A DNA stretch of 64,000 nucleotides from Vicinamibacterales bacterium (GCA_965242835.1 OZ251506.1:3907860-3971859), one strand, 5' to 3'; counted from the stretch's first letter, positions 4,318 through 56,687 are shown. The notes: a model not told the origin generated them from the letters alone. Numbers and translations are program-made.

Positions 4318-5673
4318 CACGCCCGACAGGATCGGCAGTTCGCCGGTGGCGTCGCCGAGACGCTCGGCCGGCAGGCCCATCTTCTCGAGCAGCGTCAGGT
4401 GCATGTTGGCCAGCGGCGTGCCCTCCGGCAGCCGCACGTGCCGGCCGCCCCGCAGCGTTCCGGCGCCGGAGCCGGCCACCACGATCGGCAGGTCGAGCGG
4501 GTCGTGCGCGTTGCTGTTGCCCATGCCGGCCCCGTAGACGACCATCGCCTGGTCGAGCAACGTCCCGTCGCCGTCCGCCGTCGCCCGCAGCTTCTCCAGG
4601 AAGCGCCCGAAGATCCGCGTGTGGAACGTGTTGATCTTCGCCAGCTTGACCAGTTGCTCCTCGCGGTGCCGGTGGTGCGAGACGGGGTGGTGCGGCTCGG
4701 CGACCCCGATCTCGGGATAGGTCCGCACGCTCTTCTCGCGGCCGACCAGGAAGGTGCAGACCCGCGTCAGGTCGGCCTGCCAGGCGACCAGCATCAGGTC
4801 GAACATCAGGTCGGCGTACTCCTCGAAGTCGGCGGGGATGCCGGCCGGCTGCTCGACCTCCGGCAGCCCGCGGCCGCTCTGCGACTCGGCGATCTGGATG
4901 CGCCGCTCGACGTCGCGGACCGAATCGAGGTACCCGGCGAGCTTCGAGCGGTCGCCGCGGCCGAGCCGCCGCCGCAGGTCGGAGATCTCGGCGTTCACCG
5001 AGTCGAGGATGCTCCGGTCGCGGCGCAGCGCCCGCGCCCGCGCGGCCGGCTCGGTGCTGTCGACGGCGCCGAACAGGTGCTCGAACACCGCGCGCGGGTT
5101 GGTCTGCATCGGCAGCGGCGTGTTCGCGTCGCGCCAGGCGATGGTGGCGCTGTAGGCGCAGCCGTAGCCGTCCTCGCACTGCCCCACCAGCTCGTTGGCC
5201 TCCAGCGACAGCTCCAGCGAGGCGAGCTGCGTGTCCTCGCGCAGCTCGCGGGCCGCGAGCTGGTCCATCGACACGCCCACTTCCAGGGTGCTGTTGGTCC
5301 CCGACGCCTTCACCGCGTGGGCGCCCGTGAGGTAGGCCGCCTGGCAGCGCGAGTGGTCGCCGTCGCCCTCGTCGAGGCGCTGCTTGGCCTCCTTGTTGGC
5401 CATGCCGCTCAGCACCAGCAACTGGTCCTTCACCGGGGTCAGCGGCGACAGGATCGGGGTCATCTCCAGGGCGCCCTCGGTGGGCGGCAACCAGCGCGCC
5501 ATGCTCATGCCGTTCGGCACGTAGATCGCGCCGAGCCGCCGGACGGGCCGCGCCGCGGTGTTCCGGATGGCGGCGAACGCCGGGACCATGCCGTCGAGCA
5601 GCGGCAGCGCGATGCTCGCTCCGAGGCCCCGCAGCATCGTTCGGCGTGACAGCGACTTCTTCGTGATCAGCAT
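4315..5673 (-). CDS. DUF1552 domain protein (Tat-type signal)
   Basis: MLITKKSLSRRTMLRGLGASIALPLL twin-Arg signal. Whole-length resemblance to DUF1552 proteins that pair with DUF1592-type proteins. Starts 45 bp downstream of the partner gene stop. Confidence 0.85.
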   Translation of the reverse strand: MLITKKSLSRRTMLRGLGASIALPLLDGMVPAFAAIRNTAARPVRRLGAIYVPNGMSMARWLPPTEGALEMTPILSPLTPVKDQLLVLSGMANKEAKQRLDEGDGDHSRCQAAYLTGAHAVKASGTNSTLEVGVSMDQLAARELREDTQLASLELSLEANELVGQCEDGYGCAYSATIAWRDANTPLPMQTNPRAVFEHLFGAVDSTEPAARARALRRDRSILDSVNAEISDLRRRLGRGDRSKLAGYLDSVRDVERRIQIAESQSGRGLPEVEQPAGIPADFEEYADLMFDLMLVAWQADLTRVCTFLVGREKSVRTYPEIGVAEPHHPVSHHRHREEQLVKLAKINTFHTRIFGRFLEKLRATADGDGTLLDQAMVVYGAGMGNSNAHDPLDLPIVVAGSGAGTLRGGRHVRLPEGTPLANMHLTLLEKMGLPAERLGDATGELPILSGV

Positions 5674-5718
5674 CAGAGTCTCCTCGTTGCCCGGCCCGTC
5701 CGGGTCTTCGACGCCGCG

Positions 5719-8205
5719 CTATTGCTGTACTGCCGCCGCCGCGTCCGCGCGCGCCGCGCGCAACTGGAACGGCGGGCTTTCGACGATTCCCAGAACCAGC
5801 GACGACCAGCGGTGGTCCGCCGGCGCCGCGTCGCGCAGGATGGCGCGGACCGCCGGCATGTCGGTGTGCCGGACCGGCCGGCCGAGGGCGTAGGTCAGGA
5901 GCTTCTCGGTGAACGTGCGCACGAACTCCCCGCTCCGGTCGAGCAGCGCCTCGCGGAATTCGACCGGACCGTCGAACGCCGTCCCGTCCGGCAGGACGCC
6001 CGAGGCGTCGACCCGCGTCCCGCCGTCGGTCTCCCGCCAGCGCCCGATGCCGTCGAAGTTCTCGAGCGCGAAGCCCAGCGGGTCCATCTGCAGGTGGCAC
6101 GCGGCGCAGGCGGGGTTGCGGCGGTGGGCGGCCATGAGCTCGCGGATCGAAGCCGGCTCGCCCCCGTCCCCGGCGGCTTCCTCCAGCGCCGGCACGTCGG
6201 GCGGCGGGGGCGGCGGGGGCGAGCCCAGGATGTTGTCCAGCAGGTACTTGCCGCGCACCACCGGCGAGGTCCGCGTGGCGTAGGAGGTGACGGTCAGGAC
6301 GCTTCCGTGGCCCAGCAATCCGGCCCGGGCGGGGTCGCCGAGCGGCACGCGGCGGAAGTGCGCCCCGTACACGTTGCGCACGCCGTAGAACCGCGCCAGC
6401 CGCTCGTTCAGATACGAGTAGTCGGCCGTCAGCAGCTCCGTCAGCGGGCGGTCGCCGCGCAGTTGGCTCTCCAGGAACAGCTCGGTCTCGCGCCGGAACG
6501 CTTCCCGCAGGTTGTCGTCGAACTCCGGGTAGGCGCTGGCGTCGGGGTCGACGGCCCGCAGGTTGCGGATGCGCAGCCACTGGCCGCCGAAGCTGGCGGC
6601 CAGTGCCCGGGCCCGGGGGTCGGCGAGCATGCGCCGCACCTGGGCTTCCAGCACGCCCGGCTCCCGCAGCGTGCCGCCGGCCGCGGCGTCGAGCAGCTCG
6701 TCGTCCGGGATGCTGCTCCACAGGAAGAACGACAGCCGCGAGGCCAGCTCCAGGTCGCTGACGCGGTACGCGCCGCCGGCCGCGGCGTGCGCCGGGTCGC
6801 GCTCGATGCGGAACAGGAACCGCGGCGAGACCAGCAGCCGGGCCAGCGCCTCCTGCACGCCGCGCTCGAAACCGCCCTCCTCGCGCCCGGCGCGGTAGAA
6901 CCGCAGCAGGGTCTCGACGTCCTCCCCGGCCGGCGGGCCGCGATAGGCGCGCCGCGCCAGCGTCTCGAGGATCCGCCGCGCGCACGGCTCCTCGTCGGCT
7001 TCGCCGGCGGGCCGGCAGACGAACACGCGGCGGCGGCTCGGCGTGTCGCCCGGACCCGTCGGGTCGAAGGGCCCCTCCAGCCGCACGGTGTCGACGTCCA
7101 TCCGCGGCGCCTCGTAGGTGGAGCTGGTGTGCCGCGGCGGCAGCAGCGTCGGCGCCATGCCCTCGGTCAGCACGCTCTTGCGGACGAACGCCACGCCGAG
7201 GTCGCGCGGGCCCGCGGGGGCGGAGAACCGCGCCTCCAGGGTGTCGTCCGCCGTCAGGTGGTACGGGGACGTGCGGTAGATCCCGGACCCCGTGCAGCGC
7301 GGCGCGTCGGAGTCGTTGCACTCTCCGCCGATCGTGAAGCGGGTGACCAGCGCTCCGTCGAGCAGCACGTCGATCTCCTCCCGCGTGCCGATGGCGCGGA
7401 TGCGCGAGTTCGTGAAGTTCCGGCCGAGCCGGATCTTCACCACGTACTCGCCGTCCAGCGGGAAGTGATGCCGCACGAGGGCGCCGCCGCGCGTGCCGTA
7501 CGGCAGGCCCTCGTGCATGCGGGCGTCCTGCCGCAGCCCGCGCGACAGGTCGAAGGTCTCGACCGACGGCCCGAGGGCCGGGTCGCCGACCGCGAGCTGG
7601 CTGATGCGGCGCGCGGCGAACATGTAGCGGCCGAGCAGCGTCGGCGACATCGACAGCACGTCGGCGATGTTGTCGAAACCCTGGTCCGACTCGTCGGCCG
7701 GCAGCAGCTCGGCGGGATCGATCTCCAGCGCCAGCAGGTCGCGGACGGCGTTGCCGTACTCGAAGCGGTTCAGGCGGTGGTCGGCGACGCGGCCCGGATT
7801 CGGCCGGGCGGCGGCGTGGCGATCGAGCTCGGTCTCGAGCCACGTCACGAACGCGTCGAGCGCCGCCGGCTCGGGGCGGCGGCGGCCGGGCGGCGGCATG
7901 GCGCCGCTGCGCAGCTTGCGCGCCACCTTCTCCCAGGTCTCGGCGCCGGCGCCGACGTGGTCCACGTCGGCCGCGTCGAGCAGGAGGTTGGCGGTCCGCA
8001 GCCGCTCGTTGTGGCAGGCGACGCAGTGGCGGTCGAGGAAGGCGCGCGCGTCGGGCGCGCCGACGCGGGAGACGGCCCGGGCCGCGGCGGCCGGCTCCGG
8101 GCGGGCCGCGGCTTCTTCGGCCCGTAGCGGCGCGGCGTCCAGGAACGACGCCGCCGCCAGCACGACGATGCACGCCGCCGGGACGCCGCGTGACGACCTT
8201 GACAT
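5719..8205 (-). CDS. DUF1592/DUF1595/DUF1588/DUF1587/DUF1585 multidomain protein with haem-c-like motif
   Basis: Internal ATG 8205 (MSRSSRGVPAACIVVLAAASFLDAAPLRAEE signal). CVACHNERL near the N-terminus. Long body typical of planctomycete-type PSD/DUF159x proteins. The 96 upstream codons of the track ORF cross a tandem repeat and look artefactual. Confidence 0.8.
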   Translation of the reverse strand: MSRSSRGVPAACIVVLAAASFLDAAPLRAEEAAARPEPAAAARAVSRVGAPDARAFLDRHCVACHNERLRTANLLLDAADVDHVGAGAETWEKVARKLRSGAMPPPGRRRPEPAALDAFVTWLETELDRHAAARPNPGRVADHRLNRFEYGNAVRDLLALEIDPAELLPADESDQGFDNIADVLSMSPTLLGRYMFAARRISQLAVGDPALGPSVETFDLSRGLRQDARMHEGLPYGTRGGALVRHHFPLDGEYVVKIRLGRNFTNSRIRAIGTREEIDVLLDGALVTRFTIGGECNDSDAPRCTGSGIYRTSPYHLTADDTLEARFSAPAGPRDLGVAFVRKSVLTEGMAPTLLPPRHTSSTYEAPRMDVDTVRLEGPFDPTGPGDTPSRRRVFVCRPAGEADEEPCARRILETLARRAYRGPPAGEDVETLLRFYRAGREEGGFERGVQEALARLLVSPRFLFRIERDPAHAAAGGAYRVSDLELASRLSFFLWSSIPDDELLDAAAGGTLREPGVLEAQVRRMLADPRARALAASFGGQWLRIRNLRAVDPDASAYPEFDDNLREAFRRETELFLESQLRGDRPLTELLTADYSYLNERLARFYGVRNVYGAHFRRVPLGDPARAGLLGHGSVLTVTSYATRTSPVVRGKYLLDNILGSPPPPPPPDVPALEEAAGDGGEPASIRELMAAHRRNPACAACHLQMDPLGFALENFDGIGRWRETDGGTRVDASGVLPDGTAFDGPVEFREALLDRSGEFVRTFTEKLLTYALGRPVRHTDMPAVRAILRDAAPADHRWSSLVLGIVESPPFQLRAARADAAAAVQQ

Positions 8206-8607: not shown

Positions 8608-9339
8608 TCATCCCCGGCGCGCCTGCAGGCGCTCGACGAACGCCGCGTGGTCCGGTTCGCCCAGGGCGCCCCGCTGCGCCGCCACGACGGCGGGCAGGTC
8701 GTCGCGCAGCATGGCGTCCACCGCCAGGCGGAGCCCGGGGAACACCCGGCTGCTCACCAGCCCGGAGGCGTCCGGCGTACGCGGCCGGTAGACGCCGTCG
8801 ACCAGCTCGAACCAGTCGAACCGGCGGTCCAGCGTGCGCCACACCAGGTACTCGCGCACGCCGTTGCGACGGTAGGCGCGCAGCTTGTCGTGCAGGTCGT
8901 ACGACGCGCTGCTCGCGGCGACCTCGGCGACCAGCTCCGGCGCGCCTGCGACGTAGTCGTCCTCGTCGACCCGCGCCTGCCCGCCGGCCTCCGGATCGAT
9001 GAACAACGCCGCGTCCGGCTGCGGCTCGTTGTCGAGATCGAGACGGATCGTCGGGTTGTCGTTGATCTGCACGCCCGGCGTCGCCAGAGCGTAGGTCCCC
9101 AGCCAGACGACGGTTGCGGCGTGCGGCCGGGCGTGGCTCCCGGAGCGCGTCGGTGACGGCACGTGGACGACCCCCTCGATCAGCTCCGCCTTCTTCAGGT
9201 CCGGCCGCGCCTCGTAGCGGCGCTCGAACTCGGCGCGGGTCAGGCGGTCGCCGTTTTCCAGCACCGGCGTCGAGCCGGCCGGCCGGTCCGCGGCGGGCGC
9301 GGGGGCGGACGAAACGTTCACCGATCCCATGACCGCCAT
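8608..9339 (-). CDS. Uma2-family (DUF820) endonuclease, tandem copy 1
   Basis: MAVMGSVNVSS...LTRAEFERRYEARPDLKKAELIEGVVHVPSP...EPQPDAALFID...APELVAEVAASSASYDLHDKLRAYRRNGVREYLVW: PD-(D/E)XK pattern of Uma2 proteins. The start ATG (9339) shares one nt with the TGA of copy 2. An alternative ATG lies at 9330. Confidence 0.85.
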   Translation of the reverse strand: MAVMGSVNVSSAPAPAADRPAGSTPVLENGDRLTRAEFERRYEARPDLKKAELIEGVVHVPSPTRSGSHARPHAATVVWLGTYALATPGVQINDNPTIRLDLDNEPQPDAALFIDPEAGGQARVDEDDYVAGAPELVAEVAASSASYDLHDKLRAYRRNGVREYLVWRTLDRRFDWFELVDGVYRPRTPDASGLVSSRVFPGLRLAVDAMLRDDLPAVVAAQRGALGEPDHAAFVERLQARRG

Positions 9340-10073
9340 CACCCGCCACGTTGCGCTCGCAGGCGCTCGACGAACGCCGCGTGGTCCGGTTCGCCCAGGG
9401 CGCCCCGCTGCGCCGCCACGACGGCGGGCAGGTCGTCGCGCAGCATGGCGTCCACCGCCAGGCGGAGCCCGGGGAACACCCGGCTGCTCACCAGCCCGGA
9501 GGCGTCCGGCGTACGCGGCCGGTAGACGCCGTCGACCAGCTCGAACCAGTCGAACCGGCGGTCCAGCGTGCGCCACACCAGGTACTCGCGCACGCCGTTG
9601 CGACGGTAGGCGCGCAGCTTGTCGTGCAGGTCGTACGACGCGCTGCTCGCGGCGACCTCGGCGACCAGCTCCGGCGCGCCTGCGACGTAGTCGTCCTCGT
9701 CGACCCGCGCCTGCCCGCCGGCCTCCGGATCGATGAACAACGCCGCGTCCGGCTGCGGCTCGTTGTCGAGATCGAGACGGATCGTCGGGTTGTCGTTGAT
9801 CTGCACGCCCGGCGTCGCCAGAGCGTAGGTCCCCAGCCAGACGACGGTTGCGGCGTGCGGCCGGGCGTGGCTCCCGGAGCGCGTCGGTGACGGCACGTGG
9901 ACGACCCCCTCGATCAGCTCCGCCTTCTTCAGGTCCGGCCGCGCCTCGTAGCGGCGCTCGAACTCGGCGCGGGTCAGGCGGTCGCCGTTTTCCAGCACCG
10001 GCGTCGAGCCGGCCGGCCGGTCCGCGGCGGGCGCGGGGGCGGACGAAACGTTCACCGATCCCATGACCGCCAT
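9339..10073 (-). CDS. Uma2-family endonuclease, tandem copy 2
   Basis: Protein identical to copy 1 except for the last ~6 residues (VERLRAQRGG vs VERLQARRG). The DNA is identical over ~700 bp (period 734 bp). Its start overlaps the copy 3 stop by 1 nt. Confidence 0.85.
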   Translation of the reverse strand: MAVMGSVNVSSAPAPAADRPAGSTPVLENGDRLTRAEFERRYEARPDLKKAELIEGVVHVPSPTRSGSHARPHAATVVWLGTYALATPGVQINDNPTIRLDLDNEPQPDAALFIDPEAGGQARVDEDDYVAGAPELVAEVAASSASYDLHDKLRAYRRNGVREYLVWRTLDRRFDWFELVDGVYRPRTPDASGLVSSRVFPGLRLAVDAMLRDDLPAVVAAQRGALGEPDHAAFVERLRAQRGG

Positions 10074-11820: not shown

Positions 11821-14800
11821 CTACGGTGTCGGCTCCCCCCGGCGGACCTTCCGCGGAACGAGGGCGTCTTCCGGCAGGTCGAGCGCCGCGGCGAGATGCC
11901 GGGAGAATTCGCGGAGGCGTTTCCACAAGGTATCCACGCCGCGTTCACGGGCGTCGTCCCGGAACGCGCGCGCGGCCAGGATCACCTCCGCGTGGTACTT
12001 CGATTCACCCTTCACGCCGGCGCCACGCAGCGGCGGGCAGGTCATGCGCCACGCGCCGGGCACGTGGTCCGCGAGGAGATCGTCGAACCGCCGGCCGACC
12101 GGATTGTTCGGGTTCAGGTTCAGTGCGAACAGGAGAACCGCGGCGCGACCGGCCATCTCCGCCATCCGCGGCACGACCGCCGGCGCCTCGTCCGGCAGGA
12201 ACCGGTCGTAAGGGTCGAGGAGCACGAGGTCGCCACCCTTCGCGCCACGGACGATCTCACTGAACGCGGCATACCCGTCGTATCCACTCGCGCCGCGGCC
12301 CGGAAAGTCATCGGCCAACATCTGCAGGCCGCCCAGGCCGCACTCTTGAAGGCGCTTCCGTTTGGCCGGATCCTGGTCGGAGACCAGCACGCGAACGCCG
12401 GCGCGCCCGCAAGCATCCGCCACCCGCCGCACTACCAGGCCGCTACCGTAGTAGCGGCCGTGATCGATCTCGGACTGCGCCGATCGCAACGCGCATTCCT
12501 CCGGCAGGGACCGGACGCGGCGCGCCACTTCTGCACGGGGCGCGCTCCACGGCTCGCCGCCGAACGGATCGAGGAAGCGGAACGCCACCTTCGATTCGCA
12601 TTGCCAGCGGACGAACTCGGCGAGGACGCCGTGCTTGAGCAGGTCGCCCGCGTTCCCCATGTCGTACGGCAGGTCCACGTCGGGCCTCCGGCCTTCTTCA
12701 TGTCTCCCGGCGTCGAAAGTCGGTGACCGACCGCCCGAAGCGATCGCGCGCTTCAACAGGACGCGGCGCTGACGCGCGTGAAACCAGTCGCCGTGCGGCG
12801 CCGCGGCGGACAGCCCGACCGCCGCCAGGAACTCTTCACGCTGTGGAACGGGGAAGACCGTCGTCCGCTGCCGGAGCGTTTTCCGAAGCGATTCCGACAG
12901 GCGGACGCGCGCGAAAGACGCGGGATTCCAGTCCACGGCGCGGCGATTCCGGTACGGGCATCCATCGTCACCCGCGGCGGACTCACCAGGACCGACGACC
13001 CGGCCGTAGCGAAGACGGCCGACATCGAGCTCGGGCGTGAGCACGTAGTCGCCCTCGCGGATGCGGAACAGAAAATTGTAGTACTGCCCGGTGTAATTGC
13101 GGATGAGACCGGCGTTCCAGTCCGGATGCGCCTGCTCGCAAAGGCGCCGGATCTCGTCCCGGTCCTTCGCCGACGACACGTCGACCGTGCCTATGCCGGC
13201 GTAGCCGTTGGCGACGAAGTGTTCCGTATAACTCAAACTCCCTCTCTTGGCGCGAACCACCCAGACGGCGGCCGGCCGCTCGTTGTCGGTGGTGGATGTC
13301 TTTGGGTAACCGATCGCCGTATTGGACTTGCGGTGCGAGGCTTTCCCGACGTTCCCGACGTCCTCGATCTTCGGCCCGTCCTGGGAGGCCGCGCGCGGTT
13401 CGCCCGCGTCGGGTGAAACGTCGCCGGAACCGGCATCCGTCGCCGGCGCCGGAATCGACACGGCCGGCGGGGTATCGACCGCCGTGGCCGACGACGGCGG
13501 CCGGAGCGCCAGCCCGCGCGCGCTGAGACCGATCTCCGCGAGCAGGGTGTCGAGCGCGGCGCCGCCGGCGCCGACGGCCGGCGGCGGGTCCGGGACGGCC
13601 GCCGGCGGCGGGTCCGGGACGGTCTCGGGCCGCGACGCGGCCAGGAAGACCTGCCGCCACGCCCGCAGCATCTCCTGCGCGTTGTCGAACCGCTTGCCGA
13701 ATTCGCGGCGCAGCGCCCGCCCGAAGAACGCCGTCAGCCCCTCCCGGACCGCCGGCTCGAAGGCGTCCGCGTCGACCGTCGCCTCGCAGTCGAGCACCGC
13801 CGGCTCGCTGCGTCCGTCGCCCCAGCGCGGAAGCGACCCCGCCGCCATCTCGTGCAGCGTCACCGCCGCCGCGAACCGCTCGGCGTGCGTGTCCCAGCGC
13901 GGCGGCCGGCGTGCCGCCAGGAACGGGTCGAGGTAGGGGCGCGTGCCCGCCCGGACGTTATCCGCCGGCGTGCGCGCCAGCGAGAAGTCGAACAGCACCA
14001 GGTGCAGCCGGCTGCCCACCTTCGCCACGCCCAGGTTCTCCGGCTTGACGTCCCGGTGCGGAACGCCCTGCTGCTCCAGCCAGTCCACGGCCGCCAGCAG
14101 GTCCTCGCCGAACCGCTCCAGCAGCTCCAGGTGCAGGGAGCCCTCCTCGCGCAGGCGGTCGGCCAGCGTCTCCCGCCCCGCCCGCGCCATGAGCAGGCCG
14201 ACGCGATCGCCGAACCGCAACACGTCGTGCAGCTCCACGACGGACTGGTGGCGCAGCCGGCGCAGCACCTCCGCCTCCGCCTCCAGGCGGCCGTTGTCCT
14301 CGGACGACAGCGCGACCTTCAGCACCTGCTCCCGGCCGCCGCGTTCGACGAGCAGCGCCAGCGCCGTCGAGCCCCGGCCCAGCCGCCGCTTCACGGTCAA
14401 CCCGTGATCGAGTTCGTCGCCCGGGCGCGCCTCCAGCGGGTCCGGCCGGGAACGGACCTCCGGCGCCGTGAGCTCGTCCTCGACGGCCTCGAGTCCGGCC
14501 AGGAAGTCGGCCACCGACGCGAGGCGCAGCGACACGTCGGGATGGGTGGCGTCCTGCACCAGCCGCTGCAGCGACTCCCCCGCCCCGTCGAGCACGGACG
14601 AGATCCGCAGGCCCTGCTCACGGCGCAGCCGCTCGTTCATCTCGATCGGGCTCGACGCCGGCGCGCGCCCGGAGAACAGGTGGCAGGCCAGGGCGCCGAG
14701 CGAGAAGACGTCGCTCTGCTCGGCCGGCGCGCCGTGGCCGGTCACCGCCTCCGGCGCAAGGTAGATCCAGGCCGCGTCCTCGACCAGCGTCCCCAGGCGG

Positions 14801-47926: not shown

Positions 47927-48303
47927 GTGCGGACACGGAACCTGTCGTTCCGGCGCGGCGGCGTCCTCGTGCTGTCGACGCTGGTCGCCCTCGCCGGTCT
48001 TCACTGGACGGGCGTGGCGCAACCGGTCGCCGCCGCGCAGACGTCCGACATCCGAACGCGCGCCGAACAAGGCGACGCAGGCGCGCAGAACAACCTGGGG
48101 GTCATGTATGCCCTTGGACAGGGTGTCCCACGGGACTACCGAGAGGCCGTGCGATGGTTCCGACGCGCCGCTGAACAAGGAAACGCCAACGCACAGAACA
48201 ACCTGGGGTTTTCGTTATTCCAACGGACGGGGCGTCCCACGGGACTACCGAGAGGCCGTGCGATGGTTCCGACGCGCCGCTGAACAAGGAAACGCCAACG
48301 CAC
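47927..48303 (+). pseudogene. Sel1-repeat protein, frameshifted and 3'-truncated
   Basis: GTG 47927: signal-like N-terminus, AEQGDAGAQNNLGVMYALGQGVPRDYREAVRWFRRAAEQGNANAQNNLGF. The next repeat (SNGRGVPRDYREAVRWFRRAAEQGNANAQ) continues only in another frame (shift near 48205-48215). Coding ends abruptly at the low-GC patch at ~48303. Confidence 0.65.
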
Positions 48304-48573
48304 AACCAACTCGAACTTGCAAAACCTTTTCAATCCCAAACTCAAGAGCCGCCTTGCTCAATCGTGGTGGCTCCTGAAGTTCTCGAACGATCTGGTTCTC
48401 GTGGAAAGGCTCCACTTGGCGAACCATGTTCATCTCCGGATCGAAATCTTGCGGCCCCATCTCGTCCCCAATATAACAGATCTTGCAGCAGCGTCATTGG
48501 CGTCTCGGCCGTCTCGGCCCGATCGTGAACATCGTGAACAAGCTCGTGAACTACGCGCCGACTCGCCGCGCGC

Positions 48574-49149
48574 ATGTCCTCGTCGCAGATCGCCGAGGCC
48601 CAACGGCTGGCGCGAGAGTGGCGGCCTCCTCCCTGCGGCCGCGCGGGGCGTGGCGCGCGACGACGCCAGCGACTTGGCTCTGCTCGACGGGCCGCCGCCC
48701 CGCGCGGTCGCGTCCTTCCGCGCGGGGCGGGGCATCGGCCCGGTGCCGAAGTGATCGTGGTCGGCTATCCGTTGTACGGCCTGCTCGCCTCCGGGGCGAA
48801 CGTCACGCGCGGCAACGTCAGCGCACTCGCTGGTCCGGGCGACGACCGCCGGCTCTGTCCAGATGACCGCGCCCGTGCAGCCGGGAAACAGCGGCGGTCC
48901 GGTCCTCTACCTCGCCGGGCGTGTCGTCGGCGTCGCCGTGGCCCGGCTCGACGCCCCAAGCCGTCGCCCGTGCCCACAGGCACCCTTCCGCAGAACGTCA
49001 ATTTCGCCGTCGGCGTCGGCACGGTTCGGGCGTTCCTCGACGCCGAGGGCGTGCCGTACGAGACGGCGCCCGCGGACGACGCGCTCGGGGCGGAACGCGT
49101 CGCCGCGGACGCGCGGCCCTTCACCGTGCCGGTCGAATGCCGGCAGTGA
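48574..49149 (+). pseudogene. trypsin-like (S1/DegP-type) serine protease remnant, multiple frameshifts and an internal deletion
   Basis: Fragments lie in three frames: SSSQIAEAQRLAREW; DASDLALLDG...FRAGRGI; AEVIVVGYPLYGLLASGANVTRGNVSAL; MTAPVQPGNSGGPVLYLAGRVVGVAV (catalytic Ser motif); PQNVNFAVGVGTVRAFLDAEGV. No His-motif region is left. Confidence 0.65.
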
Positions 49150-49224: not shown

Positions 49225-49893
49225 ATGAATCATGCTTCAGGCAGCGGCATGCAGTCGCTCATCCGGGTCACCGCGTTCGTCGACTGGAACACCCAGATTC
49301 GCAAGGTGGACGCCGCCGAGGGCGAGCGGCCCCACGTTCGCGCCGGACGAGCGCTGAGACGCACGGTGCGGGTCATCGGCAAGGTGCTGGCGGAACGGAA
49401 TCCATCGGCCCGGTTCAGGGTCGGCCTTCGCGTCTACCACGGCTGGTACAAGGGCTTCGAGCCGACCGAGAATCGAAAGGCCATGGCGGCGGTGGTCGCG
49501 GAAACCGACTTCGCCGATCTGTCGCCGAGTCCGAGCGTGGACGTTTCGCCGGACGTGCGCTACGGCGACGATCTTCTGGCGGCGCTGCCGGAACGACGCC
49601 ACGTCCGGCCCGCGATCCATCTCCCCGCCACGCTGCGCCGCCCGGACAGGAACTCGCCGTGGGTCGAGAAGATGGTCGATACGGCGCTGGCCGCCGACCT
49701 GCTGGCCCTGGCCCGGGACGAACCGCGCGACTGGGCGCTCGTCCTGTCGGAAGACGACGACGTGGCGCCGCCCGTGTTCGCGGCCGAAGCGTGGATGAAG
49801 CCGCACGGCGGCCGGACGTTCATCGTGCGGACCCGCGGAAGCAGCCGGAACTTCCTCAAGCTCGACGGTCTTCTCGCAGAGGTGACGCCATGA
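49225..49893 (+). CDS. NYN/PIN-like (LabA-like) predicted ribonuclease-domain protein
   Basis: IRVTAFVDWNTQ..., EKMVDTALAADLLALA and WALVLSEDDDVAPPV: three acidic clusters in NYN order. The TGA overlaps the ATG of the next gene (ATGA at 49890-49893). An alternative start lies at ATG 49249. Confidence 0.65.
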   Translation: MNHASGSGMQSLIRVTAFVDWNTQIRKVDAAEGERPHVRAGRALRRTVRVIGKVLAERNPSARFRVGLRVYHGWYKGFEPTENRKAMAAVVAETDFADLSPSPSVDVSPDVRYGDDLLAALPERRHVRPAIHLPATLRRPDRNSPWVEKMVDTALAADLLALARDEPRDWALVLSEDDDVAPPVFAAEAWMKPHGGRTFIVRTRGSSRNFLKLDGLLAEVTP

Positions 49894-52166
49894 CTCCCGA
49901 GCGGTTTCTCGACGAACTCGCGCTGTTCGCCGACCTCGGCGCCGACCCGCCGCGCCTGACCGGCGACGGAGATCGCTTTGCGATCAGGTTGTGGCGCGGC
50001 GGCGAGGAGGTGGAACTCGAGTTCGGCGCCGCCGACGCCGGCCGCATCGTCGAGCGCACGATCGGCACGCTCGACAGCGGAGAACGGCGTACGCGTACGC
50101 ATGCGTCGTACGCCGCCCTGCTCGCGTCGGAGAAATTCGGAAACCTGCGCAGGTGGGCGGACGCCCAGAAAGCGTTCCTGGAATCCCGTCTGAAGTCGCT
50201 CGACCGGAATCTCGTAAACGGCGTGTTTTCCGAGGACGGCGCGCCGGCCGGCCTCGAAGCGGTGGACGACGCCCTGGCGACCCCGGAACGCCGGGACGCC
50301 CAATCGGTCCAGGTGCTGTTGATCGACGGCCCGGCGGGCATCGGGAAGACGAAGTTCATCGAGCACCTTGCGCTGTCCCGGGCGGCGAATTTCAAGAGGA
50401 CCGGGCGTCCGCTGATCCTGCACGTCCAGAGCCGCGGCCGCGTGCTGACCTTTCTTCAGGACCTGATCGCGTTCAGCCTGCAAACGTTGCGGCTCGGCGT
50501 CACCTACGATCAGGCGCCGGTGCTGGCGCGGCACGGCCTCATCGCGATCGCCATCGACGGCTTCGACGAGCTCGGCGACCCGAACGGCTACGACCTAGCC
50601 TGGGGGCAGGTGAACGAACTCGTCAACCAGGTTCGCGGAGGAGGAACCCTCGTTCTGGCCGGCCGCGAGACGTTCATCGGCCGCGAACGCCTGCTCCGCG
50701 AGGTCAGTTCCCTGTCCGAGGATCGGGACGCGGTTCGCGCGCTGTCGTTGCAACCGCCGAATCCGTCGGCGGCGAAGGAATGGCTCGAGCGCCACGACTG
50801 GTCCCGCGAGGACCTCGGCCGCACGGCCGAATTGTTCGAGGACGGCAGCTATGCCCTGCGGCCGTTCTTCCTGGCCCAGCTCGCGGACGGCGAAACGGCC
50901 GCCGCCGTCCGGAAGGCGGCCGCGGGCAGTCCGCTTCTTCCCTTTCTCGTCGATCTGATGATCGAGCGCGAGGCGTCCAAGTTCGGTGAAAGGGTCGAAA
51001 ACGTCATGTCCGACGGCGAGCGCCGTGCCTTCGTCAGGGCGTTCCTTCGGGAGGTCGCGCGCAACATGGCGGACGATCAGACCGAGGCGCTCGACGATTC
51101 GATGATCTCCTGGCTGGTGGAGATCGCCGTGCCGGACGGGATGTCCGCGGAGGTGACGGCGCTTCTCAGGAACCGCGCCGCGGTGATGGCGTTCCTGACG
51201 CTCGACGATCGGCCGAAGTACCGGCGTTTCGCGCATTCGCAGTTGCTCAATCACTTCCTCGGCGAGGAAACGGTCGACCGGCTCGCCAAGCGAGAGATGC
51301 CGCGGTACGTCAGGCGGAACATACTGGGCGCGGACTTCCTCTCGGTGTTCGGCGATCTCACGGCGCATCTGGCCGACTCGGACCCGGAGCGGATTCGAAA
51401 CTGTTTCGACGCGGCGTCGGAGCTGGCGCGCAACTATCTGTGGACCGACCGGGGCGCGCGCAACCTCGGCGGACTGCTGGTTGCCATGCTGCCGGCGATC
51501 GAGGACGCGGAGAACCTTCAGCTCGAGGACCTGCACGTCGACGAAGCCCTGTTGCAGGACGTCGCGCCCCCGGCCAGGCTGGTGCGCGTCGTCATGAACC
51601 AGTTCGACGTCCGCGGCGCCGATCTCCGGGAGCTGCGCTTCGAAGATGCGACGATCGTGACGCTCATCGGGGACCGCTCCACGCGGATCCCGGCCTCGAT
51701 TCCGGTTCCATCCATCATTCGGAACGAGGGGGACGGCGGAGACCGCTTCATCACTGATCCGGAACCGATTGGCCGGTGGCTCGACAGCCACGGAAGGCGG
51801 CCCGTGGACGACGACGGCGAAACCGGCCACGCCGCTCCGGTGCCCGCCGCCCTGCACGATCACGATCTGGTCAGGCTTCTCGAGCGCGCCTGCCGAAGCA
51901 GGGCGTACTGGATTCCGGAACGGCGCGAAGGAGACGACCGCGGCAACCGGTTCGTGGACGAGGACGAGTGGCCCGAGTTGCGAGATCTCCTGAAGGAACA
52001 CGATCTGGTCAGGGTCGAGAAAAAGGCGTCTTCCGGCCGCGTCAGCGACTTCCTGCACATCGTGAACCGCCGGGAACTGCTGCAAGGGTTGTGGAACGAG
52101 TCCGAAGACCCGAAGGTGAGGGCCTTCTACCGGGAGTTGGTCGAGAGGACGTCGGCGCCGGGATGA
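49890..52166 (+). CDS. NACHT/STAND-type P-loop NTPase (758 aa)
   Basis: Internal ATG 49890 of ORF 49659..52166. Walker A LLIDGPAGIGKTKF (~50328-50351), Walker B GLIAIAIDGFDELGD (~50538-50570), and a long helical C-terminal half including the pentapeptide-like stretch FDVRGADLRELRFEDATIV. Confidence 0.75.
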   Translation: MTPERFLDELALFADLGADPPRLTGDGDRFAIRLWRGGEEVELEFGAADAGRIVERTIGTLDSGERRTRTHASYAALLASEKFGNLRRWADAQKAFLESRLKSLDRNLVNGVFSEDGAPAGLEAVDDALATPERRDAQSVQVLLIDGPAGIGKTKFIEHLALSRAANFKRTGRPLILHVQSRGRVLTFLQDLIAFSLQTLRLGVTYDQAPVLARHGLIAIAIDGFDELGDPNGYDLAWGQVNELVNQVRGGGTLVLAGRETFIGRERLLREVSSLSEDRDAVRALSLQPPNPSAAKEWLERHDWSREDLGRTAELFEDGSYALRPFFLAQLADGETAAAVRKAAAGSPLLPFLVDLMIEREASKFGERVENVMSDGERRAFVRAFLREVARNMADDQTEALDDSMISWLVEIAVPDGMSAEVTALLRNRAAVMAFLTLDDRPKYRRFAHSQLLNHFLGEETVDRLAKREMPRYVRRNILGADFLSVFGDLTAHLADSDPERIRNCFDAASELARNYLWTDRGARNLGGLLVAMLPAIEDAENLQLEDLHVDEALLQDVAPPARLVRVVMNQFDVRGADLRELRFEDATIVTLIGDRSTRIPASIPVPSIIRNEGDGGDRFITDPEPIGRWLDSHGRRPVDDDGETGHAAPVPAALHDHDLVRLLERACRSRAYWIPERREGDDRGNRFVDEDEWPELRDLLKEHDLVRVEKKASSGRVSDFLHIVNRRELLQGLWNESEDPKVRAFYRELVERTSAPG

Positions 52167-52228
52167 TTCGCCGCCGGACGGCGCCCGGCGGCGAAGTGGT
52201 CGTGGTCACCCTTGCGCCTGTTCCGCCC

Positions 52229-52258
52229 TTGACGATCGGCTCTCCTCGTGTGCAGAAT
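52229..52258 (+). promoter_or_regulatory. candidate sigma70-type promoter for the pentapeptide gene
   Basis: TTGACG (52229-52234), 18 nt, CAGAAT (52253-52258). GGGAGG lies 5 nt upstream of GTG 52340. Confidence 0.3.
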
Positions 52259-52339: not shown

Positions 52340-52717
52340 GTGGACATTCTGAACCGAGTGAGGCTGATTCTGCAGGAGACGTTCGAGTCGCCGTTCACGG
52401 ATTCGTACCTCGTGAAGATCAACGGCCGCACCGTCGTTCTGAAGCGGGCGGGAAGCTATCCGGGCATCGACCTGACCGGCGTCGATCTGCATCGCGCGCA
52501 CCTGGAGGGAGTGAACCTGAAGAACGCCATCCTAGTGGGCGCCAATCTGTGGGGGGCGCATCTCTCGGGCGCCAATCTGGAGGGAGCCGACCTGAAGAAC
52601 GCGGTCCTGACGGAAGCCGATTTGGAGAACGCCATCCTGACCGGGGCGGATCTCAAGGGCGCCAAAATCGATCGGGAGACGTTGTCGAAGGCGCGAGGAG
52701 TTGAAGGGGGCGTCTGA
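52340..52717 (+). CDS. pentapeptide-repeat protein
   Basis: GIDLTGVDLHRAHLEGVNLKNAILVGANLWGAHLSGANLEGADLKNAVLTEADLENAILTGADLKGAKI: A(D/N)LxX repeats. GTG start with a good SD. Visibly lower GC. Confidence 0.8.
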   Translation: MDILNRVRLILQETFESPFTDSYLVKINGRTVVLKRAGSYPGIDLTGVDLHRAHLEGVNLKNAILVGANLWGAHLSGANLEGADLKNAVLTEADLENAILTGADLKGAKIDRETLSKARGVEGGV

Positions 52718-52954: not shown

Positions 52955-53317
52955 TCATGACCGAACGTCTTTCTTCAGCCCCGACCGCCGCAATTCATCG
53001 ATCGCCTCCTCGAAGCCGTCGTCGTCGTCGCCCGGCCACGTGCCGAAAAGAGCGTCCGCGTCGAGCGGCCCCACGTTCTGCGCCTTCGCCAGGTCGTCCA
53101 GAGTCGGCGACGTCCAGAAGTCCTGCGAAATGAACGCGCCCGGCGGCGGATCCTTGACGGCCGTGTCCAAGTCGGTCTTCGTCACCGGCGCGCCGACCGC
53201 GCGGGCGATCACTCGGACCAACGCCTCGGCCTGCTGCTCGGTGAAGCCCGCGGCGCGCAGCTCCCGCACCGCGGCGTGCGTGTCGAACGTGACGGTGTTC
53301 ATGGTCTGCGCTCTCAT
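52955..53317 (-). CDS. chimeric small protein: DUF1640-like N-terminus + antitoxin-like C-terminal segment
   Basis: MNTVTFDTHAAVRELRAAGFTEQQAEALVRVI (same start as the 1816..2385 protein), then FWTSPTLDDLAKAQNVGPLDADALFGTWPGDDDDGFEEAIDELRR, a pattern common in small antitoxin-type proteins. An alternative start lies at 53302. Confidence 0.55.
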   Translation of the reverse strand: MRAQTMNTVTFDTHAAVRELRAAGFTEQQAEALVRVIARAVGAPVTKTDLDTAVKDPPPGAFISQDFWTSPTLDDLAKAQNVGPLDADALFGTWPGDDDDGFEEAIDELRRSGLKKDVRS

Positions 53318-54625
53318 GACAGCATAACGGATCCGCGGGCGTGCTCACGGTGCTCACGTGCACGGCGCACACGGTCGCGGCCGGACGTTCGACGGAGCCG
53401 GTTCCGCGCGGCGCGCCGAAATGCGGGTCCGGGTCGACGGCGTCCGCGCCCCGGACGGCCGGCGACAGGATCCTGGTCGTCGCGCCGGGACTCCGTTTCC
53501 CGCCGGGCGCACGGCCGGAACGTGCGCTCATCCCGTGGCGCAGCGCGAGCTTCCGCACCGGGTCCCCGGCGGCCGACGCCGCCATTCACGGCACGTCCAG
53601 TTGCAGGAACACGATCCCTTCCGGGCGGCGTCCGGCCCGTTCCTGCACCCCGACGCCGCCGGTAACGAACTCGTCTATAGTATGGAAGTGCAGAGAAAGG
53701 TGAACCGCATCGGGGCGCATTCCGACACCGTGCACGCCAGCGGGCGGCGGCGCGCCGCTGGCGACGTGTGAGCCCGGACGCGGCGCGGACATCGAGAGCG
53801 GGTGCGGGCCTGGCAGGATGCCGAGCGGCAAGCCGCTTCTTTCAACAGAGGATCGGATGAACAGGCAGATCATGGCGGCGGCGGTACTGGCGTTGGCGAT
53901 GGCGGTAGCGTGCGCGGATGACGGACCAGAAATCCCCGGCGCGCCGACGGCGGACGCGCAACGGTACGCGGGCGATGCGCCGATGGCGCCGGCCAGCGCG
54001 CCGGTGTTCGGACCGGAGGACGCGGCGCGGGGCGTGACGCCGCCGCACCACGGACACCGGCACGATGACTTGGACGGGCATTTCCATCGGACGCTGATCT
54101 ACGGCGACGGTTTCCAACAATACGATCCCGCCAGCGACGATTACGTCGACTGCACGGAGGATGATCGAGACGCAACCGGCGCGCGCGTACGGTGCATCGA
54201 TCATCGGTACTGGTTGAGCGATCTCCAGTCGAACCCCGAGACCCTGCGCGTGGTCGTCGATACCGCGACCGTCTGGCGGCAGACCGAAAACTACCAGGAT
54301 CAGGATGGACTGGTGCCGGACAGTCAGTGCCGCGTCTCGGATCTGCGAACACAGCGCGGTCACAGGTTCGTCGATTCCATCGCACGGGATACGGACAAGT
54401 ACATTCGTGAAGCGACGGGGCGAACCTGGCTCGGAAGCACGCACTACCGCCGTCCTGGGGCTTGGTCTCACCCGAATACCGTTGTGCTTCGATTCGTCGT
54501 GGACGGGTGCGGCGGTGAGAACGCCGCGGCGTGTGCGGTTATTGGTCCTCCGTGGTCTTCCTGGGGGCTGTCGGACGAAGACGGCGGGCGTATAAACATC
54601 GTGATCGATGACGGTTGCAGAGCTA

Positions 54626-56414
54626 GTGTCAGCCAGAAAACCCCCCGTGCAGGTGGAGATCCGGAACAGATTTGCACGATTCAGGCGATGTTTCCGCCAC
54701 GAATCCGGCGGCTCTGGCCGCAACAAGCGGTCCGCGGGCCGAATCGGCCGGAAGCAGCTCGATACACCGATGTTCAGAGCTGAGAGGAGCGTTGCCGTCT
54801 TTTGTGACGGCCGGAGACCGAGCAGGAATTCGGAACCGCGCCGCTCAGGCGGCGCGGTGGCGTTGTCGCCGTTTGCGCTCTCGCTTCTGCAGGATCGACC
54901 CGATGCGATGCAGGTTGGCGGCCAGCACCGACAGGGCGACCATTCGCGCGAAGCCGTCGGCGCCGTGACTGCGGACACGGTCGAGGCCCCGATGCTCCAG
55001 TCCGTTGATGGCCGATTCAATCGCCGGATGGGCACGCCGGGCCGCAACAAAGGCCCCGTCCTCTTCCCGCTCCCGGGCGGCCTTCGAAAGATACCCCTTT
55101 CCCGGCAGTGCGTTGACGTCGAGCAACGCATCGAGCCGCACCCGGTTGTCGGGACTGTGAAAGCCGCGGTCGAAACTGCACGCCCGCAACGCCGGATACA
55201 GGGCCTGCGTCTCCTCAACCATCGGCACCGCCACGTTCACGTCCTCCCCCTCCCACAGGATCCGATGGTGCAGGATGAACTGATACTGGTCCTCGATGAG
55301 GGCGACAGGCACCCCGAATTCCACCGGCGTGCCCGCCTTCCCTTTGGAAATCCAGCGCGTGTGCTCTTCGAAGATCGAAAAGACCTTCTCCGCGTGAGGA
55401 ATCGTTTCGCCCCGCACAAGCCGCCGCTCCACATGGTCCATCTGGCGCCGGGCGTGAGCGAGGAAGCCTTCGATCACCTGACGAGTGCTTTCCCCGACGT
55501 TCTTGTCGCGCAGCGCAGCGAGCGTTTTCTCCGCCCGTTCGACCAGGCCGCGACAGCGCTCCAGGTACGCCGACACCCGTTCCGGATGGTGCTTCGCCCG
55601 CCGCGTCGAACGCACCCGGTTGAACAGATTCCGGACCTCTCGCGTCAGATGGAGCCACTGACGCCACCCGCCCACCGACTCCTGCACGGCCGCACGGCCG
55701 GTCTCGCGCAGCAGGCACCGCATCGCGTCCCACAGCAGGTTGACGTCGGTCGGGTAATGCACGTCGGTTTCGACCACGAACGAATCACACCGTCCGCGCA
55801 ACGGCTCGCCAGGCTTTTTTTTAGCGACCTTGTGCCCGCTCTCCACCACCAGGCGCCCGACCGCCGACAGCAATTCCGGCGTCAACAGAGACACGTTGTC
55901 GACCACCGTCTGGTACTCGTAGCGCGTCCGGTCGGCGAAGTCGCCGTGCCCCAGGAACTCGCGGATCTTCCCGTGATGGTTCGCCAGGTCGTGGAGGCGG
56001 TCGAAGTCGCAGCCCAGGCCCTGTTTCAAGACGGCCAGCACCAGGACCCGCCACAGGTCCATTCCGGGGCGCCCGACGGTGCGGTCGGTTTCCGGCAGCA
56101 CATGCTCGTCCAGCAGCTCGAACAGCCGCGCGCGCAGCGCCTCGTCGCACCAGATGTGTTGCAGCCCCTTCAACACCGCCGGGATGTCGTCCCGCGACTT
56201 CGGGTCGATTTGGATCTTGTCGATCGACACCTGACCGAGTTGGAACTGCCGCTTGTAGATTTCTCTCATGGAAGTCGATGCCGCAAAGGTTGCCGAACGG
56301 TCCGGGAATCGTGCCTCTCACCTGCAAGAATACAACATCGAGGCGATCTTCGCCACTGGAAATCAGGGATAACGTCCTTTAAAATCAACCACTTACCCGT
56401 TTTCTGGCGGACAC
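54626..56414 (-). mobile_element. 1789-bp insertion sequence (IS4/IS5-superfamily, ISNCY-like transposase) with 6-bp target duplication
   Basis: IRL gtgtcagccagaaaac (54626-54641) vs IRR gttttctggcggacac (56399-56414), 15/16 match. Flanking direct repeat GAGCTA at 54620-54625 and 56415-56420. Confidence 0.85.
54845..56269 (-). CDS. DDE transposase of the IS element
   Basis: MREIYKRQFQLGQVSIDKIQIDPKSRDDIPAVLKGLQHIW...GRPGMDLWRVLVLAVLKQGLGCDFDRLHDLANHH..., an N-terminus I associate with ISNCY/IS5-like transposases. Fills the IS. Confidence 0.8.
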   Translation of the reverse strand: MREIYKRQFQLGQVSIDKIQIDPKSRDDIPAVLKGLQHIWCDEALRARLFELLDEHVLPETDRTVGRPGMDLWRVLVLAVLKQGLGCDFDRLHDLANHHGKIREFLGHGDFADRTRYEYQTVVDNVSLLTPELLSAVGRLVVESGHKVAKKKPGEPLRGRCDSFVVETDVHYPTDVNLLWDAMRCLLRETGRAAVQESVGGWRQWLHLTREVRNLFNRVRSTRRAKHHPERVSAYLERCRGLVERAEKTLAALRDKNVGESTRQVIEGFLAHARRQMDHVERRLVRGETIPHAEKVFSIFEEHTRWISKGKAGTPVEFGVPVALIEDQYQFILHHRILWEGEDVNVAVPMVEETQALYPALRACSFDRGFHSPDNRVRLDALLDVNALPGKGYLSKAAREREEDGAFVAARRAHPAIESAINGLEHRGLDRVRSHGADGFARMVALSVLAANLHRIGSILQKRERKRRQRHRAA

Positions 56415-56687
56415 GAGCTATGAACCACAGCCGGATCGCGATGGACGAACTGTACGCGCACGAACTCGGACACGTGCTCGGTTTCCACCACCCGGAGAAC
56501 ACAACCGACGCGGACGAGATGAGTGTCAGCGGATACAACGGGCGCGCGGGTTTCAGTCGGCGAGAGCAGATCCACATGCGGCACGCCTACGCTCACGGGC
56601 GCGGTTGGCGCGGAAACGACGGTCGGCACTTGGAAGGCCCGCGCCGGACTCGCCGTCCGGTGTGGATCGTCGATTAGGAGCAGGCGA

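Follow-up and report, generated by a model that had tools for sequence, protein, structure and literature searches.

Within a 64,000-nucleotide stretch of the genome of a Vicinamibacterales bacterium (GCA_965242835.1 OZ251506.1:3907860-3971859; hereafter the window, with positions counted from its first nucleotide), two adjoining open reading frames (ORFs) encode a small protein with the features of a divergent NYN nuclease (ORF1) and a large NACHT nucleoside triphosphatase (NTPase; ORF2). A preliminary description of this DNA had placed both genes here, together with an overlap of the ORF1 stop codon and the ORF2 start codon and a set of nuclease and P-loop motifs. Both frames and the ATGA overlap were found at the positions it gave, and every motif it quoted is present in the two proteins. 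The elements of the pair are as follows.

49225..49893, plus strand: ORF1, 222 aa; predicted divergent NYN (PIN-like) nuclease; AlphaFold2 (AF2) model with a predicted local distance difference test score (pLDDT) of 82
49273..49293, plus strand: NYN motif 1, AFVDWNT, ORF1 aa 17-23, at the end of strand beta-1
49666..49713, plus strand: NYN motif 2, EKMVDTALAADLLALA, ORF1 aa 148-163
49738..49776, plus strand: NYN motif 3, LVLSEDDDVAPPV, ORF1 aa 172-184
49890..49893, plus strand: ATGA, in which the stop of ORF1 and the start of ORF2 overlap; translational coupling
49890..52166, plus strand: ORF2, 758 aa; NACHT-clade STAND NTPase
49890..50294, plus strand: ORF2 N-terminal domain, aa 1-135; beta-rich with helices, no recognisable family
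50328..50351, plus strand: Walker A, GPAGIGKT, ORF2 aa 147-154; invariant in 55 sequences
50547..50570, plus strand: Walker B and NACHT signature, IAIDGFDE, ORF2 aa 220-227; D223-G-F-D-E227 corresponds to D[GAS]hDE
50760..51509, plus strand: NACHT helical and winged-helix subdomains, ORF2 aa 291-540; includes the FAHSQ motif with near-invariant H449
51510..51764, plus strand: short pentapeptide-repeat beta-helix, ORF2 approximately aa 541-625, from a profile match and AF2 strands; probable sensor part
51864..52163, plus strand: winged-helix-like C-terminal region, ORF2 aa 659-758, from secondary structure only; probable sensor or nucleic-acid-binding part

The junction reads ...GTG ACG CCA TGA CTC..., so that the ORF1 stop codon (49891-49893) overlaps the ORF2 ATG (49890-49892). 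The start of ORF1 is ambiguous: translation from the ATG at 49225 gives 222 aa and from the ATG at 49249 gives 214 aa, and the second ATG is the start of close homologues and of the gene call on a sister contig (L078, 96-98% identical to the window). Both proteins belong to large families. Clustering of full-length homologues at 90% identity gave 264 clusters for ORF1 and more than 757 for ORF2. The acidic residues of ORF1 and the P-loop motifs of ORF2 are invariant. The homologue records carry only the name 'hypothetical protein', and an exact look-up of the window ORF2 returned no record.

The NYN and NACHT genes form one obligate, co-inherited unit, and this was seen in both directions of search. 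A scan based on ORF2 found 72 loci in species-representative genomes, with hosts in the Vicinamibacterales, Holophagales, Spirochaetia, Alpha-, Beta- and Gammaproteobacteria and one cyanobacterium. Pairing was counted over 61 non-redundant loci with a substantial ORF2 match, taken from the genome scan and from look-ups. An ORF1 relative lies directly upstream on the same strand in 58 of these, and two of the three unpaired loci are cut by a contig end. The remaining exception is a metagenome-assembled genome of the Pseudomonadales (L025), where a DUF1643 gene (5474-5986; Pfam E 6e-37) occupies the upstream slot with a 4-nt overlap with the NACHT gene and no NYN gene is found there; this replacement may be an effector swap. 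A search with one ORF1 motif alone gave 80 metagenome loci, of which 75 extend over 200 nt further downstream, and the next gene encoded a NACHT protein in all 75. The linkage in other genomes that the preliminary description had proposed to look for is therefore borne out by both counts.

Pairing is kept down to 26-27% ORF2 identity, in Thiomicrospira and in a cyanobacterium. The junction is conserved as well. The genes overlap by 4 nt (ATGA, GTGA or TTGA) at 40 of 60 junctions and by 8 nt at six; the other 14 include eleven gaps of no more than 15 nt, one 11-nt overlap and one 31-nt overlap, and two of the 60 loci appear frameshifted. Across 49 loci, the identities of ORF1 and ORF2 to the window proteins were correlated with r = 0.96, which indicates co-divergence. 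No fused NYN-NACHT form was seen in the 58 paired genome loci or the 75 metagenome loci. The preliminary description had called a separate nuclease gene an unusual split architecture; the effector gene is indeed separate, but this is the rule for the whole family and not a local oddity. A conserved third gene was considered and rejected, as the flanks vary by locus and none of their gene families is found repeatedly next to the pair.

ORF2 is a NACHT-clade STAND NTPase, with a layout of nucleotide-binding, helical and winged-helix domains like that of solved NLR structures. Against the Pfam NACHT family (PF05729) the window protein scored 21.8 bits (E 1.9e-4), below the gathering threshold of 26.7 bits, and two distant relatives (L065 and L069) scored above it with 35.4 and 36.8 bits, respectively. 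Many ORF2 homologues carry a precomputed PF05729 match. The Walker A sequence GPAGIGKT fits the P-loop rule GxxxxGK[ST], and the Walker B sequence DGFDE fits D[GAS]hDE, the signature of NACHT proteins defined in bioRxiv 10.1101/2022.07.19.500537; both are invariant in 55 homologues. When the AF2 model of ORF2 (pLDDT 84) was compared with the PDB by Foldseek, the best matches were NLRC4, NOD2 and NLRP3, with E down to 2.6e-12. The top 43 matches were all NLR proteins, NLRP9 among them, while Apaf-1 and Cdc6/ORC ranked lower. By these matches and by its signature, ORF2 groups with the NACHT domains of NLRs and not with housekeeping AAA+ proteins, in agreement with the NACHT/STAND-like assignment made earlier.

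The same assignment had included a long helical C-terminal half. The helical NACHT subdomains were recovered, but they are followed by a pentapeptide-repeat beta-helix and then by the winged-helix-like region. A profile of the last 225 residues matched pentapeptide-repeat proteins among PDB sequences (Np275/Np276, E 1.4e-4; QnrB1 and McbG-like proteins), and the AF2 model shows short regular strands across this segment. The end of the model (aa 659-755) has a helix-helix-helix-strand-strand order, by which secondary structure the C-terminal region looks like a winged helix. Protein length is near-constant in the family (732-763 aa), and conservation is highest in the NTPase core and lowest at the termini, with the C-terminal region below the core. 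The N-terminal domain (aa 1-135) gave no match in Pfam or in a search against PDB sequences, and its only invariant residues are F13, D15 and Q93. We regard this domain as a candidate docking or regulatory surface for ORF1.

By sequence comparison, ORF1 appears to be homologous to the NYN domain and to form a divergent branch with the acidic site intact; the statistics are moderate. Close relatives of ORF1 matched the Pfam NYN family (PF01936) at E <= 1 in 31 of 47 cases. Among the distant relatives, 22 of 44 matched at E <= 0.1 (best 8.5e-6), and NYN was the sole Pfam family that recurred in this set. ORF1 also matched the PADLOC model of HEC-09, an NYN defence candidate, with E 2.4e-5 over about 43 residues of the active-site region. 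In alignment A3, which consists of ORF1 and 43 distant relatives, 13 of the 44 sequences matched HEC-09 and one matched the PADLOC model of a LabA-like NYN protein. For profile comparison, 41 proteins with a precomputed PF01936 assignment were aligned as a reference. A regular-expression scan of the collected loci had yielded no canonical NYN gene for this purpose, and the reference proteins were retrieved by a consensus-like probe, which is not itself counted as evidence. The alignment of the ORF1 family with these proteins by hhalign gave a local E of 2.7e-5 (probability 74%, over the C-terminal half) and, in global mode, E 6.7e-6 (probability 67%). A profile of close relatives (A1; effective number of sequences 2.5) compared with the same proteins gave a probability of 0.3%, and only the more diverse profiles aligned.

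In the alignment of the diverse profiles, all invariant or near-invariant residues of the NYN proteins (D13, Y50, K81, D85, D91, D111 and D113) align to ORF1 residues (D20, Y71, K149, D152, D158, D177 and D179, respectively) that are themselves invariant or near-invariant in the ORF1 family. D177 and D179 are in register with the Asp pair of the NYN sequence SGDSDF. The conserved acidic set of ORF1 comprises D20, E148, D152, D158, D177 and D179. In relatives with 25-37% identity to ORF1, residues D20, K149, D152, D158, D177 and D179 are invariant or near-invariant, and this conservation of the predicted NYN/PIN site argues for retained catalysis. Beyond the NYN core, ORF1 has an insertion of about 55 residues, specific to the family, before the K-x-x-D helix, a long additional helix after strand 1, and DDD where NYN proteins have SGDSDF. 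Further invariant residues are found in Y-H-G-W at 71-74 (Y71, G73 and W74) and at T136.

The order of strands and helices in the ORF1 model is compatible with a PIN/NYN fold. When this model was searched against BFVD by Foldseek, FEN-1, an 'NYN domain protein' and a LabA-like protein were among the top 11 matches; these matches are weak, with probabilities of 0.99-1.0 but E of 1e-3 to 2e-2. Profile hidden Markov models of ORF1 relatives found no match among PDB sequences. The family-wide matches to PF01936 and HEC-09 and the hhalign register nevertheless uphold, on moderate evidence, the earlier suggestion that ORF1 is NYN/PIN-like.

On the sister contig, a one-base deletion near position 9878 (window 49766) changes GTGGCGCC to GTGG-GCC in the DDDVAPP motif of ORF1 and puts the gene out of frame. 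This may reflect either a genuine loss of the nuclease in a close relative or an error of long-read assembly.

The NYN-NACHT pair is a horizontally mobile cassette that is found in unrelated contexts, including prophages and one defence island. The family spans hundreds of protein clusters in the Acidobacteriota, Spirochaetota, Alpha-, Beta- and Gammaproteobacteria and Cyanobacteria; its distribution across phyla is patchy, and most genomes lack it. In many hosts with more than 58% GC, the pair fails a filter on GC content at third codon positions (GC3) that host genes pass. Flanks differ between lineages and consist for the most part of housekeeping genes (ABC transporters, dehydrogenases, aconitase and others), with some mobile-element genes. 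Among 149 flanking ORFs sampled from 38 loci and compared with PADLOC models, there were matches to mad3 (four), mad8 (four), methyltransferases (two) and AriA (two), given here as raw counts. In IMG/VR the pair was found on four contigs, on one of them 170 nt from baseplate and tail-fibre genes and on another no more than a few kb from Zot-like inovirus genes. Locus L159 is a clear case of a copy in a prophage. In Thiomicrospira cyclica (L065, 1917-11149), the pair is part of a same-strand array that encodes an AAA_15/AAA_21 ATPase, a DUF3226/RloB-like protein, an N6/N4 DNA methylase, the NYN and NACHT proteins, a Fic protein and a solute-binding protein; this array is a compact defence island.

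On the surroundings of the pair in the window the preliminary description was also accurate: it had reported a stretch of lower GC bracketed by decayed genes on one side and an insertion sequence on the other. The GC fraction is 0.69 for ORF1 and 0.67 for ORF2, compared with about 0.77 for neighbouring housekeeping genes, and that of the island as a whole (47.9-56.7 kb) is 0.66. Upstream, at 48050-49149, a gene for a Sel1-repeat and trypsin-like protease is split over three frames; the same gene is intact on the sister contig (8092-9261, 389 aa), so that the window copy is either a true pseudogene or broken by assembly indel errors. Downstream lies an ISNCY-type element (54618-56422) with 24-nt terminal inverted repeats (54618-54641 and 56399-56422) and a transposase gene on the minus strand (54845-56269). 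The element interrupts a gene for a secreted protein (pieces 53818-54617 and 56423-56677), the C-terminal piece of which contains the zinc-protease motif HELGHVLGFHH.

On the sister contig, direct repeats of 59 nt (93% identical) and 117 nt (92%) bracket the 3.1-kb NYN-NACHT cassette (8853-8911 and 9150-9266 versus 12282-12446), with a trace in the window at 52177-52205. The copy downstream of the cassette is a mosaic that derives from the 3' part of the trypsin gene upstream. These repeats suggest that recombination or integration brought the cassette to the end of the trypsin gene; no integrase is present.

Several features of the neighbourhood are recorded here in their own right. A stand-alone pentapeptide-repeat gene of 125 aa lies directly downstream of ORF2 (52340-52717), which has a pentapeptide segment of its own, with a promoter-like site at 52229-52258; it is probably outside the module because it is absent from the sister contig. 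Downstream of the cassette, the sister contig has a 21-nt periodic repeat of seven units (12574-12781) inside a CCDC90-like (DUF1640-type) gene, of which the window matches the first approximately 51 codons only (53150-53302, minus strand). A scan for sigma-70 promoters and terminators found no site upstream of ORF1 and no terminator, and is uninformative because the genome has 70-75% GC. Rfam and tRNA scans found nothing near the pair. Far from it, at 13432-13533, ARAGORN called a 102-nt tRNA-Asp, anticodon at position 39. This length is unusual among bacterial tRNAs, and the call may be false or reflect an insertion.

Among characterised systems, the anti-phage bacterial NACHT (bNACHT) proteins are the closest in kind, and are similar to ORF2 in their central NACHT module with D[GAS]hDE, in their C-terminal sensor region and in their sporadic distribution by horizontal transfer. 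Pentapeptide repeats are among the NACHT sensor repeats given by Kibby et al. (bioRxiv 10.1101/2022.07.19.500537), and the anti-phage activity of several bNACHTs depends on Walker A (same source). In the bNACHTs described there, the effector is fused N-terminally, and clade 14 (bNACHT01) has neither an effector nor an operon partner; the listed effectors omit NYN, the RNases given being Schlafen and HEPN (bioRxiv 10.1101/2022.07.19.500537). The pair described here differs in that the nuclease is a separate, coupled gene in all paired loci, neither fused to the NACHT protein nor missing beside a stand-alone one.

Avs proteins share with the pair a STAND NTPase, a C-terminal sensor and a nuclease-type output, and their logic of phage-protein recognition followed by oligomerisation is one that ORF2 may follow. 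They differ in that one polypeptide carries both a fused effector and a large sensor (TPR or other), whereas ORF2 is of the NACHT clade and has a short sensor; no Avs model of PADLOC v2.0.0 matched ORF2 at E <= 1. More generally, no system in PADLOC v2.0.0 was matched by both proteins, with only noise for ORF2 (GajB, 0.0084; mad8, 0.03) and only the partial HEC-09 match for ORF1. HEC-09 resembles ORF1 in its NYN/MARF1-like nuclease domain with three conserved Asp residues and in the profile match. It is, however, the product of a single gene with an N-terminal helix-turn-helix-like region, occurs within Hma systems and lacks a partner NTPase (Payne et al., bioRxiv 10.1101/2024.01.29.577857). 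With canonical NYN and LabA-like proteins (PF01936), ORF1 has in common the order of strands and helices and the conserved first Asp, Tyr, K-x-x-D, Asp and D-x-D; its insertion, extra helix, DDD for SGDSDF, score below the gathering threshold and constant pairing with NACHT set it apart.

A parallel in gene organisation is offered by STAND/NLR systems that act through effectors in trans, such as those with EADs and the CARD-NLR-like systems with a protease and gasdermin, in which sensor and effector are also neighbouring separate genes. In these systems the partners are linked by homotypic adaptors (EAD, Death-like or CARD) present on both proteins (PMC7159879). ORF1 and ORF2 show no such shared adaptor. 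A homotypic EAD-like adaptor joining the ORF2 N-terminal domain to ORF1 was considered and rejected (hhalign probability 0.3%), and in its AF2 model ORF1 is essentially the NYN domain by itself, which would leave no room for an additional domain.

We consider it fairly probable that the NYN-NACHT pair is an NLR-like, two-gene anti-phage system of the abortive-infection type. This reading is based on the NACHT and NYN identities of the two proteins, their obligate pairing, the context of mobility and genetic conflict, and the precedent of bacterial NACHT proteins, which have been shown by experiment to be anti-phage sensors (bioRxiv 10.1101/2022.07.19.500537). In such a system, ORF1 and ORF2 would be produced at a fixed ratio and bind each other, and within this complex the NYN nuclease would be kept inactive by the NACHT protein. 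The pentapeptide-repeat and winged-helix-like regions at the C-terminus of ORF2 would recognise a protein or nucleic acid derived from the phage. The NACHT module would then exchange its nucleotide and oligomerise, as in NLRs and bacterial NACHT proteins, and the clustered N-terminal domains of ORF2 would release or activate the nuclease. The nuclease would cut RNA, or possibly single-stranded nucleic acid generally, so that phage replication stops and host growth pays.

Several observations weigh against the anti-phage reading. The ORF1 protein of the window, taken singly, reached only E 0.27 and 12.2 bits against PF01936, the gathering score of which is 24.2, and a Foldseek search of its model against the PDB returned nothing significant, the matches being generic and Rossmann-like (best E 2.5e-3, template modelling score about 0.3). 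The winged-helix-like pattern predicted at the C-terminus of ORF2 would fit a DNA-binding regulator too. HEC-09, the sole stand-alone NYN defence candidate to have been tested, was unprotective in the published assays (bioRxiv 10.1101/2024.01.29.577857). The association with defence islands is modest because most of the 149 flanking ORFs are housekeeping genes, and a tblastn search of 72,556 plasmids and 50,697 phage genomes gave no match. The interaction of the two proteins, the nuclease activity, its substrate, the trigger and the defence role are all inferred.

An addiction or stress module of the toxin-antitoxin kind would explain some of the same data. ORF1 would be a constitutively active toxic RNase that the NACHT protein inhibits or chaperones in an ATP-dependent way, and the pair would stabilise mobile DNA or arrest growth without specific phage sensing. 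PIN-like nucleases are classic toxins, and the tight operon of two genes with overlapping frames and strict co-inheritance, often found by itself amid housekeeping genes, has the form that such a module would take. We nevertheless hold this explanation to be unlikely: a multidomain NACHT protein of 758 aa with a sensor-like C-terminus far exceeds any known antitoxin, and the gene order and NLR-type architecture better suit a sensor and switch. It also overlaps with abortive-infection defence, and the two are not mutually exclusive. The housekeeping character of most neighbours and the predicted winged-helix-like end of ORF2 could instead point to a physiological regulator pair, in which ORF2 would be a STAND transcription factor like MalT or AfsR and ORF1 would process or degrade specific transcripts. 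Bacterial NLR-related proteins with regulatory, non-immune roles are reported to exist (bioRxiv 10.64898/2026.09.02.748808). A regulator of this kind seems improbable to us, as there are no conserved target genes next to the pair and its flanks vary by locus, its occurrence is sporadic across phyla with a GC content below that of the host, the pair is carried by prophages in some cases and lies in a defence island in one, and the winged helix is assigned from secondary structure only.

The nuclease itself could be in question. ORF1 might be a catalytically silent adaptor or sensor that binds nucleic acid, with the toxic output coming from the ORF2 N-terminal domain or from a host factor. The 135 N-terminal residues of ORF2 match no known family and would leave space for such an activity, and the insertion of about 55 residues and the additional invariant residues Y71, G73, W74 and T136 of ORF1 go beyond the NYN core. 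Set against this are the active-site acidic residues, invariant at 25-37% identity, and the lack of a conserved, catalytic-looking constellation in the ORF2 N-terminal domain, and we think a silent ORF1 improbable too. Finally, NYN domains also serve in normal RNA processing, and the genes might belong to housekeeping RNA metabolism or be unrelated genes brought together by chance. Strict two-way pairing over more than 130 loci in at least five phyla, with the overlap conserved, and a patchy distribution in which most genomes lack the cassette speak against this. The two-way pairing and the conserved overlap effectively refute it, and we give it almost no credence.

Returning to the anti-phage reading, a more specific version can be put forward tentatively as a possibility that we consider somewhat less likely to be right than wrong. 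In this version, an NLR-type switch would hold the NYN nuclease in a pre-formed heterocomplex through the novel N-terminal domain, without a shared adaptor, and would release or activate it once a phage factor engages the C-terminal modules. Pentapeptide-repeat proteins are DNA mimics, and the module in ORF2 could thus be a bait for a phage DNA-binding protein. If the heterocomplex switch is correct, the replacement of NYN by DUF1643 in the Pseudomonadales locus would identify an 'effector gene slot' with exchangeable content, equivalent in a two-gene system to the shuffling of effector domains in fused NLRs.

No description of a NYN-NACHT cassette was found in the literature searched (Kaur 2020/2021, Kibby 2022, the 2026 STAND census and wider), and it may sit unnamed in STAND censuses. 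That NLR-type proteins recruit separately encoded effectors is already known in principle; an NYN effector and a split without adaptors are unreported. The cassette is small (about 3 kb) and present in cultivable Proteobacteria, among them Stutzerimonas stutzeri K1, Xanthomonas sp. NCPPB 1128, Herbaspirillum sp. GW103 and Bradyrhizobium lablabi, which makes it directly testable. From bacteria to humans, NACHT and NLR proteins act as central switches of immunity, and those of animals recruit separate effector enzymes. The bacterial NACHT proteins described so far mostly fuse the effector, and this pair could be a simple two-protein model of how such an enzyme is controlled in trans. If the defence role is true, NYN would join the confirmed immune effectors of prokaryotes, in a system that current annotation tools have missed.

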